This document shows positions 6,147 to 60,325 of a DNA stretch of 64,000 nt, one piece after another (the first letter of the stretch is position 1; the number at the start of each line of letters is the position of its first letter). Made by a program: the position numbers and the translations under genes. Source of the stretch: Candidatus Levyibacteriota bacterium (lineage in GTDB: Bacteria; Patescibacteriota; Microgenomatia; Levybacterales; UBA12049); the NCBI GenBank assembly GCA_041906785.1, contig JAYRIM010000017.1, positions 210-64,209 on the forward strand, read 5' to 3'. The notes below the pieces were generated by a model. The model worked only from the letters and a program-made list of their open reading frames with translations, was not told where the DNA came from and made no database searches.

Positions 6147-6644
6147 TTAGTCCGAAATCCACCACCACGCGTAAAACCGCTCAGGGTAGACTCGAAGACG
6201 GATCGTGGGCCAAATTTGGATAATACTGTTAGTCCAGCCCATGGAGACCAACAGCTCTGTTCTCGTCAACTGGTAGAGTCGGGGATCAATACGCGGCCGC
6301 CAATCACCACGCTGTACGCGGTACCACCCACCATAAGCCACATTGTATGTGTATGGGTGATCCCAATGGATGGAACCCTGCTTGACGTTGTAGAATCCGA
6401 CGGAGTAGTGATACTCCCCGTCGTATTCTTCGTAGATATAGTTCCCGGGCATCCATGACCACGCCCCCTGTTGATCTCTCGCTGCAGCACCAGGCGGATC
6501 CTTTGGAGGTGTGGGTGGTTCTTGCAGCAACACATGGTCCTTGGTGTCGCGAGGCCCGTCAGCCAGAGTTGTCTGCGGGACAAGCAGAAATGCCAGCCCA
6601 CAAACCACAAGCACGAGTAGCGCAAAATTGCGCAGTGTCTTCAT
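6147..6644 (-). CDS. Secreted Trp/Tyr-rich protein on a GC-rich islet (signal peptide plus 140-aa domain)
   Basis: The N-terminal signal peptide is MKTLRNFALLVLVVCGLAFLLVP. The DNA is about 55% GC against roughly 36% in the flanks. YNVAYGGWYRVQRGDWRPR-type aromatic motifs are present. Confidence 0.6.
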   Translation of the reverse strand: MKTLRNFALLVLVVCGLAFLLVPQTTLADGPRDTKDHVLLQEPPTPPKDPPGAAARDQQGAWSWMPGNYIYEEYDGEYHYSVGFYNVKQGSIHWDHPYTYNVAYGGWYRVQRGDWRPRIDPRLYQLTRTELLVSMGWTNSIIQIWPTIRLRVYPERFYAWWWISD

Positions 6645-8507: not shown

Positions 8508-9464
8508 TTAAACGCTAGACGCTTTCAATTCTTCTGCTATCTTATCAGCTATAGATAAAATCTCAAACTTAGCAAATCGCCTCTCCGGTGGAACAACCAC
8601 AGCATCAGTTGCAAAAATATTTGTCACTTCTGACTCCTGTAAAATACTCACTGCTTTTTCAGAAAAAAGTGGGTGGGTTATGAAAATATATTGTTCTTCT
8701 ACTCCTAATTTTTTAATAAACTTTACAGTTTCGATAATCGAACCCCCGGAAATCATATCATCAACGATAAGTGCACGTTTCCCTTTCAGATTGGTTTGCG
8801 TTGGCCCAATCTCTCCTGATTCTTGTGGTCCTTCAAGATGATCGATTACTACCTTTCCTGTATCAAGGTTTCGATGTTTCAGTGTCGCAACCCATGGCAT
8901 GTTATTAAGCAGTTCTGATATCTTTTGAATTCTTCGTAACCCTCCCATGTCGGGAGAGATAAGAATCGAATTGGAATCATTCCATCCTCTTTTTTTAATT
9001 TCTTCTGCAAAAACTGGTAACCCAGACAGATGACTAACTGGAATAGAAAATAATTCTGGAACTTTTATTGTATGGAAATCAAAACTAATAAATCTATCAA
9101 CTCTCAATGTTTCTAAAATTTTTATAATTACTTCGAGAGATACAGCTTCTCCATCCCGAAATACATGATCTTGACGCATGTAACCCATATACGGCATAAC
9201 AACAGTTATACTGGTCGCGCCACTTCGTTTTAACGCATCAAGAATTAAGAATAACTCGACATAATGCTGATCAACGGGGGTATTTGTGCTTTGGATGACC
9301 ACAACATGCTCATCTACTACACGTTCTTGGATCTGAATTCGTCTCTCACCATCAGGAAAAATAAAAATTTCCATTGGAGAAATTTGTAAATCTAACGCCG
9401 CTACAACTTTTTCTGCGAGTGGTTTATTCGAACTCCCGCTAAAAATTTTCATGTTATAAGTCAA
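8508..9464 (-). CDS. prs: Ribose-phosphate pyrophosphokinase
   Basis: MKIFSGSSNKPLAEKV N-terminus, PYMGYMRQD, and the PRPP-binding loop LIVDDMISGGSI. Confidence 0.9.
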   Translation of the reverse strand: MTYNMKIFSGSSNKPLAEKVVAALDLQISPMEIFIFPDGERRIQIQERVVDEHVVVIQSTNTPVDQHYVELFLILDALKRSGATSITVVMPYMGYMRQDHVFRDGEAVSLEVIIKILETLRVDRFISFDFHTIKVPELFSIPVSHLSGLPVFAEEIKKRGWNDSNSILISPDMGGLRRIQKISELLNNMPWVATLKHRNLDTGKVVIDHLEGPQESGEIGPTQTNLKGKRALIVDDMISGGSIIETVKFIKKLGVEEQYIFITHPLFSEKAVSILQESEVTNIFATDAVVVPPERRFAKFEILSIADKIAEELKASSV

Positions 9465-15362: not shown

Positions 15363-17702
15363 TTATCCTCGTTGATTAAATGCAGCTCCTATACTATCTG
15401 CGTTTGCAGCTCCAAATGCTCCAAGCGCTCCAGCCCCAAGAGCATATGGCATTCCACCAGTCTGGAATGCCGTGTATAAGCCAAGCGCAGCCAGCAATCC
15501 CCAAAGGAATTTCGTCTTAACATCCAGAAGTACGCCTGCTTGTTCTAATGCAGCGATTCGGCCTTTGATAGCTTTATTATTCTCAACGGCACCCATCACC
15601 ATAGTGCTATACTTATCAGCTATTAACTTCCATTCATGATCTTTCAGAGTTAGTGGTCCACTTCCCATCATAAGGAATCCACCCAGCTTATCTCTCATTG
15701 TTCTTTCAGACACAAATGACATAAATAATTTATTTCGATATTGTTCTTGCATACCTGTTAGAACCTCACGAAGTCTTTGTTGCGTCTTTTCATCGTATTG
15801 AGTTAATTGAACATTTCTCCACCAATCCGCATCAGCAGTCGTATCAACTCCCTGTGGAGCCACACCTAAATCACGTAACATGAGACGCTGTAAAGCTAAA
15901 TCACCATCTTTAGAACTTGGATCACCATTATATGCAAGATATAGAATATCAGTTCGAATGTTATCATAACGAACTGTTTTACTTCTCGTTTCATCATTAA
16001 GAAGAACCCATCTATCGCGAATAACCTCTCCTAATGTCTCCATATTTTTCGCTTTTTCCTCTTCACCTTTCTTTCTCGCTTCTTCTGCCTGGTCTTTTAT
16101 ATATGCATCTTGGATTTTATTCATGTCATCAATTCTGGCATCTAAAACATCCAAGACAGATTCAGAAAGAACATTATCAAGTCCATCAATTAAATCTGTT
16201 TCTTGCTCAAGCCTTCTTGCCCTACTTGATTTTAAGTTTTTCTCTGCTTCATCCTTTCTCGCTTTTATCGTCTCATCTGCTGCCTTCTTCGTCTGAGCAG
16301 CTTCAACAGCTTTTGCTGTATCTCCTGCAAATGAACTTACATATGCACCTCTTTGATCTTTTGTGGTATTTGTCGCAGCCATGATCGTATCGTAATCTTG
16401 GGCTTTACCAGTAAATTCCTGTTCTGCAGCATTTTTCGCATCATCATCTGCTCCTTTTCGGATTTCCTCGTTCTTTATTTTATCTCTTGCAGCTTTCTTG
16501 TCATCAATTAACTTTTTTAAACGAACTTCCTCTAATTGTGTAGCTCTTCTATCACCTCTCTGTATTTCCTCAAGCCTTTTTTCTAAATCTGTAACCTCTT
16601 TCTCTGCATTTCTATATTTTGTAATAAGCTTTATATCCTCATCCTTTAAACCTTTATTCTCAAATGCTTGAGCGCGGAGACCATGAACGACATCTTCAAA
16701 TGTCGCACCTTCTTCTAATTTCTTCTTAATACTAGCTGTAAAATTCTCTACAGTAAGATCTACTTCATTTCCGGTAGCTGGATCTATTCCTTTCACTTCA
16801 ACAGGTTTCACTCCGAAAGTCATCGCTGCTTTCGCTATAGCAGCAGCTTTTTCATCTAATGTCTTATCTGCTTCTTTTTTATCTTCCTCTGCTTTTATAC
16901 TAGCTTCATCTTTCTTTTCTGCAGTGAGACGTCCAGCTGCTGTTTTCATCTCTGCCATTTTTTCAAGAAGTTTCTGTCTCACTGCCGGATCACTCATTAA
17001 ATATACGTCCACAAAAGTACGTTGAGCATTTTGGTCTCTTACCTCGTTTAGCTGCTTACCATACAATTGTTGAATTGCTGGAGTGTTAATGAGAAGATCT
17101 AAACTTTGATCACGAAGCTCATAAAACTCATCTTCTGTCATCTTACCATCTTTTGTTGGAGTTTCTAATGCAGTTTCTAATAAAACAACTAGATAATCCC
17201 GTCCTGTTTTTTCAGCTTCAGCTTGTGCCCTCTGGACGATATCTGTATATGTGAGAACTTTATTCAGATTTTCTACTTGCTTCTCTCCTGCTTTAATTTT
17301 ATCCTTTAACTCTTTCACCTCATCGGGTGTTAACCCCTCCTCATCGATAACTGGTTCATCATTAACTTTTTTAACTGTCCCATCCGCTTCGGTTTTCACT
17401 CTACCCCCACCGAAAGACGCCTTCATCTCTTTCTGGGCTTTATCATCAAATGTGGCTTCTTTATCTGCCTTTTCCTTTCTATTCTTCGCTCGAGCTGCTT
17501 CAATCTCCGCTTTTCCATCTCGAGGAGCATCTGGCTTTCTCCGTGATCTGATGCGCTCTGCTGCTTCGAGGCTCTCCTGAATCTGGCGGTCTCGCTGTAA
17601 TCTTTGGAGCAATGGACGATCTGCCTGTCTATCTGTATGATAAACAGCTTCTGCATGAGTAATTCTCGCTGAATCGGGTGACGCTGGTGCTGCTGCTGCC
17701 AT
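15363..17702 (-). CDS. Large K/E-rich coiled-coil protein (779 aa) with a C-terminal membrane anchor
   Basis: Hundreds of residues of heptad-like charged sequence. The C-terminus FLWGLLAALGLYTAFQTGGMPYALGAGALGAFGAA is hydrophobic and Gly-zipper-like. Confidence 0.5.
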   Translation of the reverse strand: MAAAAPASPDSARITHAEAVYHTDRQADRPLLQRLQRDRQIQESLEAAERIRSRRKPDAPRDGKAEIEAARAKNRKEKADKEATFDDKAQKEMKASFGGGRVKTEADGTVKKVNDEPVIDEEGLTPDEVKELKDKIKAGEKQVENLNKVLTYTDIVQRAQAEAEKTGRDYLVVLLETALETPTKDGKMTEDEFYELRDQSLDLLINTPAIQQLYGKQLNEVRDQNAQRTFVDVYLMSDPAVRQKLLEKMAEMKTAAGRLTAEKKDEASIKAEEDKKEADKTLDEKAAAIAKAAMTFGVKPVEVKGIDPATGNEVDLTVENFTASIKKKLEEGATFEDVVHGLRAQAFENKGLKDEDIKLITKYRNAEKEVTDLEKRLEEIQRGDRRATQLEEVRLKKLIDDKKAARDKIKNEEIRKGADDDAKNAAEQEFTGKAQDYDTIMAATNTTKDQRGAYVSSFAGDTAKAVEAAQTKKAADETIKARKDEAEKNLKSSRARRLEQETDLIDGLDNVLSESVLDVLDARIDDMNKIQDAYIKDQAEEARKKGEEEKAKNMETLGEVIRDRWVLLNDETRSKTVRYDNIRTDILYLAYNGDPSSKDGDLALQRLMLRDLGVAPQGVDTTADADWWRNVQLTQYDEKTQQRLREVLTGMQEQYRNKLFMSFVSERTMRDKLGGFLMMGSGPLTLKDHEWKLIADKYSTMVMGAVENNKAIKGRIAALEQAGVLLDVKTKFLWGLLAALGLYTAFQTGGMPYALGAGALGAFGAANADSIGAAFNQRG

Positions 17703-17706
17703 AGTA

Positions 17707-18015
17707 TTATTTTTGCAATTTTTGTAACTCTTCCTGCACTTTTTTCATTAACTCATCTTTTTCAAACTCTAAATAAACCGGTCGATATACTTCCCATTGA
17801 TCTGCAAGTTGCTTAAGAAATAAAAGTAATTCACTTTTTGTTTTTAATATATCCAGTTTTGTTGCGATGAGTTCGGCTGAATCTTCAGAATCTTGCGCGT
17901 TGAAAAATTCTGGATTCTTCATTTCTAAACCTTTTATCATCGCATCAGCCAGTAATTCATATACACGTGACCGTAATTCTTCACTTATTGGCTGATTCTG
18001 ATTATCATCTGACAT
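17707..18015 (-). CDS. Small conserved protein, paralog A (102 aa)
   Basis: Shares an 80-aa core with the next gene (SEELR..VYE(L/M)LADAMI.GLEM.NP..FN..DSE.SAELIAT.LD..KTK.ELLLFLK.L.D.WEVYRPVYLEF). Confidence 0.5.
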   Translation of the reverse strand: MSDDNQNQPISEELRSRVYELLADAMIKGLEMKNPEFFNAQDSEDSAELIATKLDILKTKSELLLFLKQLADQWEVYRPVYLEFEKDELMKKVQEELQKLQK

Positions 18016-18067
18016 ATACTATATGGTACCATGATTCAATAGAAATTTCTTACAATCCTTTTTCGTC

Positions 18068-18529
18068 TTATTTAGAATCTGAACTCATTTCTTTTAAGCG
18101 TTTCATTGCTTCTTCTATAGAGATATGTTCCATTGATTCACCCTTATTGCTTTTCCATTCAACAATAATACCAGCATGCCTCAACACATCATGATCTCCT
18201 CGAGCAAACGCTCTTTGTAAGTCATCTGAGTCTAAAGCCATATGAACAGGAACGAATTCGAGATAGACTGGTCTATATACTTCCCATCTGTCAGAGAGTT
18301 TTTTAAGAAAGAGGAGTAATTCATGTTTTGTCTTTATCTGATCAAGTGTTGTTGCTATAAGTTCAGCAGATACTTCCGAATCTTTAACATTAAAAATGTC
18401 TGGATTTAGCATCTCTAGACCTGTAATCATTGCATCTGCAAGCATTTCATATACTTTTTTTCGAAGCTCTTCACTAACAGAGTCATCAGGATTTATGGAA
18501 TGGTGAGCATGAATATGCGGATGCGCCAT
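18068..18529 (-). CDS. Small conserved protein, paralog B (153 aa) with a His-rich N-terminus and a C-terminal extension
   Basis: MAHPHIHAHHSINPDD N-terminus. Same core as 17707..18015, plus a 50-aa tail. Confidence 0.5.
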   Translation of the reverse strand: MAHPHIHAHHSINPDDSVSEELRKKVYEMLADAMITGLEMLNPDIFNVKDSEVSAELIATTLDQIKTKHELLLFLKKLSDRWEVYRPVYLEFVPVHMALDSDDLQRAFARGDHDVLRHAGIIVEWKSNKGESMEHISIEEAMKRLKEMSSDSK

Positions 18530-18565: not shown

Positions 18566-20323
18566 TCAAGAGCTCATCTTCTTTAATTCTTCAATTGCTT
18601 CAGAGAGTGTAAGAAGTTTCGTATTGCTTTCCCTTCTTACTTTCCATTCAACTTTATCTTGCGTTTTAGTACTGATCACCAATCTAACAGGAATACCTAT
18701 CAAATCAGCATCTGCAAATTTTTCTCCAGCGCCGACATTCTCTCTATCATCATACAAAACCTCAATCCCAGCAGCTTGTAACTTTTCATAAATATCTTCT
18801 GTTTCAGATTTGAGATTTGAATATTGAGTTTTGAGATTTATCAAATGAACCTGGTATGGCGCAACTGTTTCCGGCCAGATTATTCCTCGATCATCATGGA
18901 ATTTCTCTACAATAACGCCCATTAAACGTGAAGGTCCTATTCCATATGAACCCATATATACTTCTTTTTTCTCTCCATTTTCGTCTGTATAGTAATAATT
19001 AATTGCTTTTGTAAATTTCGTATTTAAAGGGAAAATATTACCAACTTCTGCCGCACGGAAAACCTCATACCTTTCACCTGTTTCAGGATATATGTCGCCA
19101 TCTTTTGCAATTTTAAAATCATAAAATTTTTCAGGAAGCTGGATATCTCGACCCCAATTTACGTTAACCGTATGATAATCTGTTTTGTTTGCACCACATT
19201 CGAAATTTTTACGGTTCGCTGTAGACTCATCAAAAAATACTTTAACATCTGAAGAAAGATTTAAAACGCCTGCATACCCTACTTCAGCACCTGTTACTTT
19301 TTTAACAACATCTGCAGAAGCCAATTTGATCGCTTTACATCCAATAATTTTAATTAATTTTTCTTCATTAATATCGTATCCTCCTCGAACAGCAGCCGCG
19401 ACAACATTACCCGTATCTGTCTCAAACAGTAACGTCTTAGTAGTTTTTTCAACAGGGATTTTTAGAAAAGCTGCAAGTTCTTCAACACCCACAATCCCTA
19501 CGCCTAACACATCTTCTCTATCCTTCATTTCTTCATCAGTATCATTAAGAGCCGGTGCCTGAGAAGGAGCAATCTCTCTATTAAAAGCTATGTTTTTTGA
19601 TTTTACATAGAAAACAGTATCTTCACCCGTTTCACAACGAGTTTGAAATTCATGTGAGAAGTTTTTCGTAAAATCTCCTCCGGATGCTAACGTTATAAAT
19701 GTATCCTTACCTATACCAACACGACGGAATACGTTCATATACACTTCTTTCGCTTTTTCATAATAATCTAATAAATCTTCCTCAGACGTATGGAAACTAT
19801 ATAAATCTTTCATACGGAACTCTCGACCGCGCATTAAACCTGATTTAGCGCGTGCTTCATTTCGGAATTTAGTCTGGATTTGATAAAAAGCGAACGGAAA
19901 ATCTTTATAACTTGTATTAAACTCTTTTGCCAAAGGAGTTACCATGTCTTCATGTGTACAACTCAGAATATATTCATTTGTGTTTTTCGATTGGGAAAGT
20001 TTATTCGCACCTGATGTTTTCATTAAAACGTCAACAGTTTCCAACCGTCCTGTTTGCTCCCATATTTCCTTAGGCGCAAGTGACGTCATGAGAATTTCAG
20101 TACCGATCTTATCCATTTCTTCACGAACGATTTGTTCAATTTTATTTAAAACGCGCAATCCCAGATGAAGAAATGTATAAACACCAGCCATTTCTTGGTG
20201 AATAAATCCAGACTTCTGCAATAATGTAGCATTTATAGACTCGAATTCTTTTGCGTTTTTTCTCGTTTTTATATACAGTTTCGAATATCTCATATGAATA
20301 ATTTCTTGTGTTAAGTATAGCAA
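18566..20323 (-). CDS. proS: Prolyl-tRNA synthetase (bacterial type with INS editing domain)
   Basis: Class II motifs. Editing-domain signatures (KTLLFETD, GAEVGYAGV). C-terminal anticodon-binding domain. The true start is probably MRYSK at about 20293. Confidence 0.95.
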   Translation of the reverse strand: MLYLTQEIIHMRYSKLYIKTRKNAKEFESINATLLQKSGFIHQEMAGVYTFLHLGLRVLNKIEQIVREEMDKIGTEILMTSLAPKEIWEQTGRLETVDVLMKTSGANKLSQSKNTNEYILSCTHEDMVTPLAKEFNTSYKDFPFAFYQIQTKFRNEARAKSGLMRGREFRMKDLYSFHTSEEDLLDYYEKAKEVYMNVFRRVGIGKDTFITLASGGDFTKNFSHEFQTRCETGEDTVFYVKSKNIAFNREIAPSQAPALNDTDEEMKDREDVLGVGIVGVEELAAFLKIPVEKTTKTLLFETDTGNVVAAAVRGGYDINEEKLIKIIGCKAIKLASADVVKKVTGAEVGYAGVLNLSSDVKVFFDESTANRKNFECGANKTDYHTVNVNWGRDIQLPEKFYDFKIAKDGDIYPETGERYEVFRAAEVGNIFPLNTKFTKAINYYYTDENGEKKEVYMGSYGIGPSRLMGVIVEKFHDDRGIIWPETVAPYQVHLINLKTQYSNLKSETEDIYEKLQAAGIEVLYDDRENVGAGEKFADADLIGIPVRLVISTKTQDKVEWKVRRESNTKLLTLSEAIEELKKMSS

Positions 20324-20766
20324 GGCTCTTCTGCAATAACAATTGGTTCTTCTCTTCGTTGAAATTGATGGATAACAGCATCAGTAAAAATAACAATCTC
20401 TACTCCATCACGAATTTGCTGCTTTCCCATTTTTCGTTCTTGTCCTTCTTCTGTTACGAAAGCCGTGACAGGAATTCTTCGATTATTTCTATGCTGTCTC
20501 CCTCCTAATACTCTCTGTAAGATAGTATTTTGACCAAAATCTATCCTTACTTCCTGACCAGTTCCATCAGAATTCGCAGGTGCAAAGGCTAAATTGATAA
20601 AACCATTTCCTGTTTCATGTTTTCCTGCTACGTCAGGAAGTTTTGCAATTGTATATATTCCTTCTGTAGTACCATTCTTTGAGAAGGTATGAATATCCAA
20701 ACCTTTTTTTGCAAGGAGATCTTCAGCTTTTATTCCAGTAATCTTTATTTCAGTCGTCATATGCAC
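20311..20766 (-). CDS. Hypothetical 151-aa protein immediately upstream of and overlapping proS
   Basis: Protein-like composition. There is a weak N-terminal resemblance (LLAKKGLDIHTF) to YbaK/ProX deacylases, but the GGxSPxG motif is absent. Left unassigned. Confidence 0.4.
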   Translation of the reverse strand: MHMTTEIKITGIKAEDLLAKKGLDIHTFSKNGTTEGIYTIAKLPDVAGKHETGNGFINLAFAPANSDGTGQEVRIDFGQNTILQRVLGGRQHRNNRRIPVTAFVTEEGQERKMGKQQIRDGVEIVIFTDAVIHQFQRREEPIVIAEEPCYT

Positions 20767-20810
20767 AAAAAAACCGCCCTTAATCCCGATCTCATCGGAA
20801 CAAGGACGGA
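20767..20810 (-). terminator. Intrinsic-terminator-like hairpin plus U7 tract abutting the start codon of the 20311..20766 ORF
   Basis: On the minus strand, ccgtcctt-[gttccgatgagatcgggatt]-aagggcgg is followed by ttttttt, then gtgcat-ATG. Confidence 0.5.
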
Positions 20811-21112
20811 AATAATTCTGTAACTCAAATTTTTGACTTTTAACTTTTGAGCTTTGAATTAATTCGTGGTACCACCTTGCTTTCGCTTGCTACAAAAAAT
20901 CCACCTTTCGGTGGAACAACAGAACTATAGCAATTGCTTATTTCTGCGCTCCGTTGCCGACACGCTTTATCGTATTTCTTGTCCTCCGTAGTTTTAACGA
21001 AGGACGGATACGGTTGACTTCCGTATTGCTCATCGCAATCAGCTCATTTGGCGGGAAACCAAACTTCTTGTCCTCCAAAGCTTTAGCGAAGGAGGAATAA
21101 CGCTTTATTAAT

Positions 21113-21148
21113 GAATATAATAAAACAACTAGCTAGCCTTGTCAATAA
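21113..21148 (-). promoter_or_regulatory. Near-consensus sigma70-type promoter (TTGACA-N17-TATTAT) firing into the structured leader
   Basis: The minus-strand sequence is cttatTGACAaggctagctagttgtttTATTATattc, located just after the gnd stop. Confidence 0.5.
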
Positions 21149-21154
21149 GTTTTT

Positions 21155-22126
21155 CTACTTAGTCTTTACTGCATGTCCTCCGAATTCTCTTCGCAATGCA
21201 GCAACCATCCTTGCGGCAAATGATGAGGAAATTGTAGTATCAGTACTTGACCTTCTCCGGAAATCCAGTGATTGTTCGATATTTTCTACTGGTACATGTT
21301 CCTCTCTTCCCTGTTTCACTGTCCATTCAGCTTCACCCGTAGCACTAATTACACCATCCAAACCTTCTAATCGAGGATCTTTCTCCAACGCTTCTTTTGC
21401 ACAATCAAGCAGGAAACTGGAAACTATAGTTCCTTTTTGCCAAAGTTTTGCAACATCAACCAAACTGAAATTATATGGCGCTTTCTCTAATACACCGAAA
21501 CCTTCACCAATCGCTTGCATCATGCCATATTCAATACCATTATGAACCATTTTTACGAAGTGCCCAGCTCCATCTATGCCGAAATACGCATGCCCTCCAT
21601 TTGGCTTTTTAAGAGTCTCCAAAATTGGCTCAATGTGAAAATATGCTGTTCTGTCTCCACCGACCATTAACGGATACCCATTTTCTGCAGCTTTAATACC
21701 TCCACTAACTCCTATTCCTAAATATCTTACACCTTTATCTCCAGCAATCTTACTTCTCCGTTCAGTATCTTTATAAAAAGAGTTTCCACCGTCTATTATT
21801 ATGTCTCCCTTTTCAACAAACTTAAGGATCTCTTGGAAAAGAGTTTCTGTCGCTTCTCCAGCTGGAACCATCATCCATAAAACGCGAGGTATTGTAAGAC
21901 TCTTCACAAGTGCTTGAATATCTACTGGAGCGATAAACCGTTCCTCCAAATGTTTTTCGCCTAGAACCAAACGAAATTGCTCAGTTACCTCTCTGCTTCT
22001 ATTCCACGCGACTACTACATGACCGTCGAGCAATAATTTCTCAACCATTCTCGTTCCCATTTTTCCAAGCCCCATAAATCCTACTTGCATAATCTCATTA
22101 TAAATTTCTCCATTCTCATTTCTCAA
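21155..22126 (-). CDS. gnd: 6-phosphogluconate dehydrogenase (decarboxylating), short NAD-binding form
   Basis: MQVGFMGLGKMGTRMVEKLL Rossmann N-terminus. 6PGDH C-terminal domain motifs (GHFVKMVHNGIEYG). Confidence 0.85.
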   Translation of the reverse strand: MRNENGEIYNEIMQVGFMGLGKMGTRMVEKLLLDGHVVVAWNRSREVTEQFRLVLGEKHLEERFIAPVDIQALVKSLTIPRVLWMMVPAGEATETLFQEILKFVEKGDIIIDGGNSFYKDTERRSKIAGDKGVRYLGIGVSGGIKAAENGYPLMVGGDRTAYFHIEPILETLKKPNGGHAYFGIDGAGHFVKMVHNGIEYGMMQAIGEGFGVLEKAPYNFSLVDVAKLWQKGTIVSSFLLDCAKEALEKDPRLEGLDGVISATGEAEWTVKQGREEHVPVENIEQSLDFRRRSSTDTTISSSFAARMVAALRREFGGHAVKTK

Positions 22127-25941: not shown

Positions 25942-25995
25942 TCTTCGGTCGCCTTAATTTTGATGTTGGCGGCCCTTCGTCCGCCGAAGCTTTAA
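25921..25995. repeat. Cluster of GC-rich small hairpins with a CCTTCG/CGAAGG and GAAGCTTTA core
   Basis: cgaaggcactcttcg, ggcggcccttcgtccgcc and ccgccgaagctttaagcgaaggcgga. The last one is about 80% identical to cctccaaagctttagcgaaggagga at 21075-21100. Confidence 0.45.
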
Positions 25996-26168
25996 GCGAA
26001 GGCGGATTTCGCTGTAGATCAATTACAGTCGTAGAATAACAAAAAGAGGCCAGCACCTTCTTGACGCTATAATGACAGCTAGCTAACAAGATGCTTACAA
26101 AACATTGTGCTTGTAACTTGTAATGCAAGAGATTTTACGTAATACGTTATACGCTACACGTTTCACGA

Positions 26169-59512: not shown

Positions 59513-60325
59513 TTATAAGGTGGCAAAAATCATAGAGCAAGATTTTCCTGAACAGGCAATCCCGGCTTTTGTATAAGAAGCGTTTTGAATAATACCTCTA
59601 TGGATTGGTGAATTTAACCACCACTGCACTGCACCTTCTTCAGTATTGTAGTAGATAATAATTTCAGAAGAAGGATAAGAGAGGTTTTTGGCATAAAAAC
59701 CAGCATGCATATTACCATTTACGAAAATCTCATCGAAGAGCTCAGGAGCGCGTTCCTTGGCTATCTGCATGATAGATTCATTTCTCTCGACAGGTTGTAA
59801 TCCGATAGAAATTCTATGCTGATTCACAAGATTAAAAATGACATCTGAGTTAAGAGTATAATCTTCGGTATCTGGTGTAATAGTTGAGGCTGAAGCTACT
59901 TCCTGCATGGGTGTCACATATGCTATAGTTATAACCTCATTTGATACGGCCATCACGGTTTGGTCATCTGACATGTCCTCTCTCATATCTTCATTTGCTG
60001 CAGCAGCATATATACCTTTATCTTGGTTGAATATAAGAGAAGGTTCTTTTCGTATGGTATATACGAACTCGTTTCTTTCTTTAAACGAGGCTATCTTCAC
60101 TGTTCGCAAATAAGGTGGTATAAGTTGAGGCTGGTTATTTTTATTCACTGCTTCGCCAGATACCGTCTGGTGTCTGGCTTCGCTCTGCTTGTCCGCCGTA
60201 GCCTCGGCGGAGGCGGAACCGTCAACATCCGAATAAGAAGCACTAACCAACGAAGGCTGAATAAGGGGAAATATAGTATTTACTGCGAGAAACGCAGTAA
60301 GTACGTTTTTTCCTGCCTGAAACAT
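59513..60325 (-). CDS. Secreted CAP/SCP/PR-1-like domain protein
   Basis: Signal peptide. C-terminal VQWWLNSPIHRGIIQNASYTKAGIA resembles the CAP3/CAP4 motifs (W.NS..H..N.L....VGCA). Confidence 0.6.
   Translation of the reverse strand: MFQAGKNVLTAFLAVNTIFPLIQPSLVSASYSDVDGSASAEATADKQSEARHQTVSGEAVNKNNQPQLIPPYLRTVKIASFKERNEFVYTIRKEPSLIFNQDKGIYAAAANEDMREDMSDDQTVMAVSNEVITIAYVTPMQEVASASTITPDTEDYTLNSDVIFNLVNQHRISIGLQPVERNESIMQIAKERAPELFDEIFVNGNMHAGFYAKNLSYPSSEIIIYYNTEEGAVQWWLNSPIHRGIIQNASYTKAGIACSGKSCSMIFATL

Follow-up and report, generated by a model that had tools for sequence, protein, structure and literature searches.

The proBA and proI leaders of Bacillus subtilis are proline T-boxes. As a rule, a transcriptional T-box requires a long Stem I whose platform binds the tRNA elbow (PMC7583486). 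An ultrashort Stem I with the specifier in its apical loop is typical of translational T-boxes, which are found mostly in Actinobacteria and for which a full Stem II S-turn is then essential (PMC7583486), and the short-Stem-I model of TBDB was used only for Actinobacteria and for sequences detected by Rfam (PMC7778990). Here we describe a leader of about 343 nt (20767-21109) in a 64,000-nucleotide stretch of DNA from Candidatus Levyibacteriota bacterium (contig JAYRIM010000017.1; this whole stretch is the window below), a member of the candidate phyla radiation (CPR)/Patescibacteria. Every feature of the leader lies on the minus strand, between a gene of the 6-phosphogluconate dehydrogenase family (21155-22126), itself preceded by zwf, and proS (18566-20293), which encodes a prolyl-tRNA synthetase (ProRS) with an editing domain and is the regulated gene. 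The leader consists of a decoding module, a linker module, a discriminator and a terminator. From sequence comparison, we consider it very probable that this region is a tRNA-Pro-specific T-box riboswitch controlling an operon of an orphan open reading frame (ORF) and proS. Sequence homology, architecture, covariation, an association between codon and gene, and mutually exclusive folds are established here.

We built a covariance model, R1, from nine compact relatives of the leader, none of them the window itself or a member of its closest subgroup. Against the 64-kb window R1 gave a single match, covering the full model at 20801-21087 on the minus strand with 36.2 bits and an E-value of 1.2e-5, which is more than chance. 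The same model matched 17 of the 59 closest proS loci in species-representative genomes, with no other match there above noise, and recovered one leader (L034) that had been missed by eye. The comparison of proS upstream regions proposed in an earlier note on this DNA, made from the sequence alone, did reveal homologous leaders. Searches with nhmmer linked the window leader to sequences upstream of proS in L001, L006, L041 and L029 (E 1e-37 to 8e-8), and the T-box motif alone was found in many more proS loci than were full-leader homologs by nhmmer or blastn. The best proS match, L001 (80% protein identity), shares synteny with the window, in the order zwf, gnd, leader, one gene, proS. The locus is also present in the Logan assembly of SRR26835457.

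Relatives of the leader also matched the Rfam T-box model RF00230, with 70.9 bits for L004 (E=9.6e-16), 57.3 bits for L099 (E=2.5e-12), 38.4 bits for L041, which shares the linker module of the window (E=2.2e-7), and 34.1 bits for L008 (E=2.7e-6). In the insertion-poor relatives the match ran from end to end: the kink-turn (K-turn), Stem II, the IIA/F-box region, Stem III and the T-box/antiterminator all aligned, with about 74 Stem I positions of the model replaced by a handful of bases. All 59 closest proS loci are from metagenome-assembled genomes (MAGs) of CPR/Patescibacteria, in the clades Levyibacteria, Daviesbacteria, Gottesmanbacteria, Roizmanbacteria and 'Microgenomates group'. The host frame is for this reason CPR, and the Firmicute setting in which the earlier note had seen this proS T-box does not apply. 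The MAG records of L001, L040, L042 and others are titled 'uncultured Gammaproteobacteria' or 'Pseudomonadales', while their proS and leader type group with CPR/Microgenomates; the titles are probably automatic mislabels.

The CPR leaders share one order of elements. A K-turn-like GA motif (AGC-NNN-GA ... GA-GCU) is followed by a Stem I of 4-7 bp, with an apical loop of 5-9 nt that ends in CCC or CCU plus a purine, and by a Stem II of 4-5 bp closed by GAUGA, GAUAA or GAAAA, which is longer in L099 and L014 than in other members. Next comes a IIA hairpin, which carries CCGU(U)A; a pseudoknot forms between its loop and the linker that follows. After a variable linker or Stem III, the leader ends with an antiterminator carrying the bulge UGGUA(C/U/A)C and a terminator with U5-U7.

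In the window, the 5' strand of the K-turn, AAAGC-GUUA, is located at 21098-21106, and its C-stem AGC pairs with GCU at 21041-21043. The K-turn pattern is present by sequence (C-stem, 3-4-nt bulge and GA, then GA and C-stem), with a 30-nt hairpin held in the bulge of the window copy. Among relatives, AA replaces the 3' GA in four members, and L008 lacks the 5' GA. The G.A pairs of the K-turn and an ultrashort Stem I, GUUUGG/CCAAAU, which covaries, occupy 21044-21067. The apical specifier loop UUUCCCG (21058-21052) presents the codon CCC (21055-21053) with the purine G next to it (21052). The CCN codon that the earlier note expected in a Stem I specifier loop is thus present, but it is carried by the apical loop of the ultrashort Stem I and not by an internal loop. 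A minimal Stem II of 4 bp with a pentaloop, UUGC-GAUGA-GCAA, follows at 21026-21038; the corresponding region of L004 aligns to Rfam Stem II. The Stem IIA hairpin, ACGG-AAGUCAA-CCGU-A, with the F-box-like CCGUA, lies at 21009-21024, and the Rfam alignment places the IIA region of both L004 and L041 on IIA/F-box. In our hand-curated alignment, the IIA/B pseudoknot is made up of GUC in the IIA loop (21018-21016) and GAU (20971-20969).

The T-box sequence itself, CAAGG-UGGUACC-ACG (20865-20879), provides the 5' strand of helix A1, the 7-nt bulge and the 5' strand of helix A2. Its core AAGGUGGUACCACG (20878-20865) agrees with the T-box consensus AGGGUGGNACCGCG at 11/13 specified positions; the earlier note had found the motif but had counted 12/13. 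Both mismatches fall within helices, where the opposite strand compensates for them. The UGGU bulge motif is present in the 19 compiled leaders and in L034. A second exact GGTGGTACCGCG occurs in the window at 6317-6328 (minus strand), within a 165-aa ORF for an apparently secreted protein (6147-6644); it has no leader features and was rejected as a chance match.

The T-box sequence (20879-20865) is complementary to CGU-CCUUG at 20808-20801, giving A1 as CAAGG/CCUUG and A2 as ACG/CGU. These 3' strands of A2 (CGU) and A1 (CCUUG), at 20801-20808, are also the 5' arm of an intrinsic terminator, CCGUCCUU-[UUCCGAU GAG AUCGGGA]-AAGGGCGG followed by U7 (20767-20809; hairpin -18.7 kcal/mol), in which CCGUCCUU (20809-20802) holds the A2/A1 3' strands and pairs with AAGGGCGG. 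Since 20801-20808 is shared by both structures, antiterminator and terminator are mutually exclusive. The fold energies were -36.0 kcal/mol for the terminator form and -26.0 kcal/mol for a forced antiterminator, the ranking expected of a switch that needs tRNA to stabilize the weaker fold. The final terminator next to the downstream start, already recognized in the earlier note, was confirmed; our simple terminator scan missed it because its apical part exceeds the loop limit of the scan. The same note had judged the canonical antiterminator/terminator overlap not to be evident, with about 80 nt of simple repeat separating the motif from the terminator. The overlap is there at 20801-20808, with the same layout in relatives, and the intervening sequence is no unstructured repeat but an A/U-rich 56-nt hairpin (AAUUAAUUC...GAAUUAUUUC, 20809-20864) that extends helix A2. 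Relatives carry an insertion at the same site, longer in L001 and shorter in L046 and L050.

The codon presented by these leaders is associated with the genes that follow them. In 18/18 Pro members the last bases of the apical loop are CCC or CCU and a purine (A/G); those of the window are CCC+G. The genes after the Pro leaders are proS alone, ornithine cyclodeaminase with proS, or ornithine aminotransferase with pyrroline-5-carboxylate (P5C) reductase and proS; others are a glutamate-5-kinase-like gene (then proS in L037), GNAT with proS, and a gene for a tRNA-binding-domain protein with proS. One leader with the same architecture of short Stem I and terminator, L099 (10042-10226 of the metagenome contig Ga0208872_1000054), has the loop CAAUCA (AUC+A), and the gene after it has ileS as its best NCBIfam match and encodes an isoleucyl-tRNA synthetase with an apparent histidine-phosphatase-like insertion. 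Proline is therefore not the only specificity of the class. Every member has UGGU in the bulge, which fits a tRNA with A73, and bacterial tRNA-Pro and tRNA-Ile have A73.

A pattern scan of metagenomes returned mostly canonical long-Stem-I T-boxes of other phyla, and the short type only in L099, L163 and perhaps L153; a regular expression for a short Stem I was too noisy to use. L163 (minus strand, about 8811-8979 in reverse-complement coordinates) holds a short-Stem-I proline T-box with no U-run terminator and may be a translational version of the T-box; the ORF after it, starting MADKLKDFNTDLAGWFNDIVL, looks like what we take to be the N-terminus of an archaeal-type ProRS. L153 (8249-8337, minus strand) has a very short leader with a T-box motif and a terminator upstream of the gene MKFSIDKKVFEQFPNL..., and may be another minimal T-box with a different specifier.

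The leader has a promoter of its own. The near-perfect TTGACA-N17-TATTAT described in the earlier note stood up as a sigma-70-type promoter at 21117-21145 (minus strand), with 11/12 consensus matches, and is the top promoter-like site within 20300-21600. Transcription would start near 21109, a few nucleotides ahead of the K-turn as in relatives, and L004, L009, L041 and others have an equivalent promoter at the same distance upstream of the leader. The same note's description of a GC-enriched, hairpin-rich leader also agrees with our results: compared with shuffled sequence, folding gave z = -4.57 for 21112-20893 and z = -3.22 for 20899-20764, and leader GC is 0.39-0.45 against 0.33-0.39 in the flanks. 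RNA from the plus strand folded more weakly (z=-2.36) and had no R1 match. We also considered 6S, signal recognition particle (SRP) and RNase P RNA, raiA, type III toxin-antitoxin repeat RNA and retron RNA, and dropped them, as there was no Rfam support and the repeats in the leader are not tandem.

We propose that the decoding module (K-turn, apical CCC plus purine, Stem II and pseudoknot) would select tRNA-Pro by codon-anticodon pairing. Uncharged tRNA ending in ...ACCA-3' would pair with the UGGU of the bulge UGGUACC and stabilize the antiterminator, and RNA polymerase would then continue into the ORF and proS. If the tRNA is charged, the terminator (20809-20767 plus U7), as the more stable fold, would form instead, and its hairpin would double as a block on translation initiation. 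We infer tRNA binding and the response to charging; the suggestion in the earlier note of a T-box leader that senses tRNA-Pro via UGGU:ACCA and controls proS is supported by comparative and profile evidence, with binding predicted.

Several observations weigh against the T-box assignment. The Rfam scan of the window gave no T-box match, either at the gathering threshold or at E<=10 (its noise matches, snoR17, Ysr49, PinT and sroH, were rejected), and none of 13 relatives reached the RF00230 gathering score of 93 bits. The leaders lack the long Stem I whose AG bulge and distal loop make up the platform for the tRNA elbow: in L004, 74 Stem I positions of the Rfam model are deleted, with 6 nt in their place. 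This distal platform is said to be necessary for transcriptional T-boxes (PMC7583486). There is no room for an S-turn in Stem II, whose helix is only 4-5 bp in most members. In place of the conserved G.U, the A2 pair adjoining the bulge is A-U (13 sequences) or G-C (5 sequences). In the window, the K-turn bulge is interrupted by its 30-nt hairpin, and an internal terminator-like hairpin followed by U6 (P-c, described below), upstream of the discriminator, could stop transcripts early. The pseudoknot alignment was hand-picked. The tRNA genes of the window are for Ile and Cys alone, and no tRNA-Pro gene was found there or in the 59 related loci.

The lack of an Rfam match in the window is explained by its two repeat hairpins, the linker module and the 56-nt A2 hairpin. 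The cmscan check with RF00230 proposed in the earlier note accordingly gave nothing for the window itself, but insertion-free relatives do match the T-box model. Taking the absence of an Rfam hit as a refutation, as that note did, would have discarded a real riboswitch: lineage-specific insertions broke the match, and it was the insertion-free relatives that rescued the identification. As the scores of the relatives (34-71 bits) fall below the gathering score, CPR T-boxes escape annotation, and standard annotation is blind to every copy.

Covariation was assessed in two alignments. The model-derived alignment, of 19 sequences, has 97.6% of its cells paired and shows changes on both sides in 12/18 pairs; 0/500 shuffles reached this, and slid controls paired at 33-48%. 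A hand-curated condensed alignment that includes IIA and the pseudoknot gave 99.3% of cells paired and 19/25 pairs changing on both sides, although it leans towards pairing because its segments were chosen by hand. MAFFT applied to whole leaders misaligned L008, L026 and L099 and was set aside. The C-stem of the K-turn covaries as AGC/GCU, UGC/GCA, CAC/GUG and AUC/GAU, and Stem II, with 4/4 pairs double-sided, as UUGC/GCAA, CUGC/GCAG, CUAC/GUAG, AUAC/GUAU and GUGC/GCAC. The loop:linker pairs of the pseudoknot (96% paired in the hand-curated alignment) are GUC:GAU in the window, GUU:GAC in L001, and AUC:GAU, GAU:AUC, CCA:UGG, CCU:AGG, UGU:ACA, AUG:CAU and others elsewhere. A1 and A2 pair in 100% of cells, with CG, UA or AU as the outer A1 pair and AU or GC as the first A2 pair. 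At the level of sequence, covariation supports every helix tested.

The comparison of the window with L001 points the same way. Within the 68-nt core from the K-turn to IIA there are five substitutions, each at a paired position and each leaving the pair intact. At the base of Stem I the window has G.U where L001 has G-C; in Stem II it has U-A for C-G, and in the pseudoknot GUC:GAU for GUU:GAC. With core changes that keep pairing while the flanking genes share only ~75% DNA identity with L001, the pattern is one expected of a structure under selection and not of a relic. This bears directly on the best surviving alternative, the decayed T-box entertained in the earlier note, in which the element has been disabled here by hairpin insertions and an internal terminator and proS is constitutive or expressed from another promoter. 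The missing Rfam match would fit such decay, as would the interruption of both the K-turn bulge and the pseudoknot linker, and the orphan ORF in place of the ornithine cyclodeaminase of L001 suggests local rearrangement. However, the core helices, codon loop, bulge and terminator overlap are all intact, the substitutions relative to L001 are compensatory, and the promoter is near-consensus. The linker module is common to L001, L006, L029 and L041, and a K-turn hairpin in L006 shows that insertions are tolerated. We therefore regard decay as unlikely.

The window copy of the T-box is one that carries lineage-specific insertions at structurally permissive sites. Two direct repeats are real, as the earlier note had it, but they measure 35 nt rather than 32, are 83% identical and lie 89 nt apart (21065-21099 and 20976-21010). 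The first copy forms the 30-nt hairpin UCCUCC...GGAGGA in the K-turn bulge (21068-21097), and the second forms a 32-nt hairpin, GUCCUUCGU...ACGGAGGAC, between Stem IIA and the 3' strand of the pseudoknot (20977-21008). L001 has neither of these ~30-nt repeat hairpins. L006 has an unrelated hairpin at the K-turn site of the first copy, which indicates that this site tolerates a helix.

The two repeat copies belong to a small dispersed family of GC-rich hairpins, roughly CCNCC-UUCGCUNAAGCUUCGG-NGGACAAG, with further copies at 25976-26006 and about 60188-60222 (both minus strand) and in L048 (6092-6238). Apart from the two in the T-box leader, the window has one copy between genes and one within an ORF (59513-60325). 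Similar GC-rich hairpins occur in other CPR T-box leaders, at the tip of Stem II in L008, in Stem III in L037 and after Stem I in L034. The family may be a miniature mobile element or resemble repetitive extragenic palindromic (REP) elements.

The end of the leader raises the question of whether it acts on transcription or on translation. A run of U5-U7 directly follows a stable hairpin in 18/19 compiled leaders and in L034, at 0-28 nt from the start codon, and its presence whatever this distance favors intrinsic termination. In 9/18 leaders with a U-run, including those of the window and L001, the start codon comes 0-1 nt after the run, and in these nine the 3' arm of the hairpin carries the Shine-Dalgarno-like GGAGG, GAGG or AAGG. 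Because of this 3' arm, which is G-rich in the window, and the position of the start codon, dual action is probable, and the same terminator hairpin probably also blocks the ribosome-binding site and translation initiation. A stronger version of this idea is that the final hairpin is chiefly a Shine-Dalgarno sequestrator and termination is secondary, as in the actinobacterial T-boxes with an ultrashort Stem I. Elsewhere it is translational T-boxes that are known to have an ultrashort Stem I (PMC7583486), and the arrangement in the nine leaders, together with L163, which lacks any U-run, would agree with it. The U-run after the hairpin, however, is the signature of intrinsic termination, and where proS is directly next (L004, L008, L014 and L026) the start codon lies 15-26 nt past the hairpin and is not sequestered. 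A mainly translational mechanism thus appears quite unlikely.

Between the pseudoknot and the discriminator, a three-hairpin linker module of ~90 nt is common to the window, L001, L006, L029 and L041. Its first hairpin, P-a (GCGUGUCG-GCAA-CGGAGCGC, 20965-20946), resembles Stem III of L008, and the second, P-b, is CAGAA...UUCUG (20946-20920); both are conserved in these five genomes. By eye, P-b covaries as CAGAA/UUCUG, AGAU/AUCU, CUCAA/UUGAG and UAAC/GUUA, and P-a has GCG/CGC against GUG/CAC. The third, P-c, corresponds to the ccacc-tttc-ggtgg hairpin of the earlier note and was verified as UCCACC-GAAA-GGUGGA followed by U6 (20894-20915; -10.3 kcal/mol). In the five genomes its stem is invariant, its loop is GNRA and U5-U6 follow. 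P-c may act as a pause site or partial terminator, so that the tRNA has longer to bind. Another possibility is a Stem III substitute formed by its U-run and the purine-rich GAAAG ahead of A1, as the Rfam alignment of L041 suggests, where the U-run after P-c pairs with downstream purines. Most members have such a purine-rich run, GAAAG or the like, in front of A1. A hairpin adjoining it is present in L004, L008, L014 and L037 and absent from L009, L043 and L050, and the window subgroup has the three-hairpin module in its place.

That the locus holds two units, a free-standing small RNA of ~215 nt from the promoter to P-c (20915-20894) and then an independent short attenuator, is extremely unlikely: P-c was indeed the sole site returned by the simple terminator scan, with a stem invariant in five genomes, and the 5' 220 nt fold strongly alone (z=-4.57), but the 5' part is exactly a T-box decoding module and the 3' part exactly a discriminator, in compact relatives the two are adjacent and the internal hairpin is missing, no second promoter separates them, and no function is known for a decoding module that lacks a discriminator. 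The free-standing non-coding RNA considered in the earlier note is thus discounted, the 5' decoding module and the 3' discriminator belonging to one unit.

The first ORF downstream of the leader (ORF151, 20311-20766, minus strand) is an orphan whose length is 151 aa with a start at GTG 20766 and 149 aa with a start at ATG 20760. Neither Pfam nor NCBIfam gave a match, and its sole match among 5.8 billion proteins is itself. It takes the place of ornithine cyclodeaminase in the syntenic L001, and it starts at the position equivalent to the start of the first gene there, with no residual similarity to that enzyme to indicate a remnant. Whether ORF151 is a protein-coding gene is uncertain. Homologs and an independent gene call place the start of proS at ATG 20293 (MRYSKLYIKT), while the mechanical ORF call had TTG 20323. 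With proS starting at 20293, ORF151 ends 17 nt before it and the overlap of the two described in the earlier note disappears; no obvious Shine-Dalgarno sequence precedes proS. Downstream of proS, at 15363-18529 (minus strand), are three ORFs of 153, 102 and 779 aa without a Pfam match, and the first two of these regions are conserved at the DNA level in L001.

Compared with canonical RF00230 leaders, such as tyrS and glyQS of B. subtilis, the CPR leaders are alike in the K-turn sequence pattern, the specifier plus purine, the F-box, the IIA/B pseudoknot, the 7-nt UGGNACC bulge between A1 and A2, the competition of antiterminator with intrinsic terminator, and the control of an aminoacyl-tRNA synthetase together with cognate biosynthesis genes. 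They differ in lacking the long Stem I with its AG bulge and distal loop, in a Stem II of 4-5 bp without an S-turn, in an A2 pair at the bulge that is A-U or G-C and not G.U, in a Stem III that is absent or replaced in several members, in scores below gathering, and in a host from the CPR and not the Firmicutes. The helix at the K-turn bulge recalls the k-junction, a K-turn elaborated into a three-way junction; the inserted hairpins of the window and L006 would resemble it as a topological analogy only.

The actinobacterial ileS T-boxes (Mycobacterium tuberculosis, M. smegmatis and N. farcinica; PMC7583486, PMC11297988) share with the CPR leaders the apical specifier on a short Stem I above a K-turn motif, the absence of an elbow platform, the IIA/B pseudoknot with its linker, and the same discriminator core. 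They control translation by sequestering the Shine-Dalgarno sequence, their Stem II is complete with an S-turn that is essential, and they are specific for Ile, whereas the CPR leaders have a U-run terminator, a minimal Stem II and specificity for Pro (Ile in L099). The actinobacterial class has a sequestrator without a terminator; the CPR leaders do have a terminator, and about half of them also have a Shine-Dalgarno-like 3' arm, making dual action possible. The staphylococcal glyS T-box, with its 'stem Sa' (PMC9177973), is a further example of a lineage-specific helix within the antiterminator/terminator domain of a functional T-box. The site and sequence of that helix differ, and the window adds insertions in the K-turn bulge and the pseudoknot linker as well as the three-hairpin module.

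We found no literature linking T-boxes with CPR, Patescibacteria or Microgenomates, and as coverage was incomplete this is weak evidence of novelty. Tentatively, CPR/Patescibacteria may hold a distinct, undescribed T-box class that works by co-transcriptional termination through a minimal decoding module, with no elbow platform, S-turn or G.U sensor. In the subgroup of the window, the linker hairpin with its U-run and the A2 insertion would be built-in delays, and the terminator would double as a Shine-Dalgarno sequestrator. If true, this would contradict the idea that a transcriptional T-box depends on a long Stem I to capture its tRNA quickly, and the delays would give a slower-binding tRNA time to act. 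An ultrashort Stem I with a minimal Stem II and a terminator is a natural test of the minimal RNA for fast tRNA recognition. CPR are a very large uncultured group with tiny genomes, in which the leaders described here predict tRNA-sensing control of proline supply, acting on proS, proB-like genes, proC and the enzymes that convert ornithine to proline. By homology, architecture, covariation and the logic of codon and gene, the sequences identify the element as a T-box, and as a plain member of neither described class.

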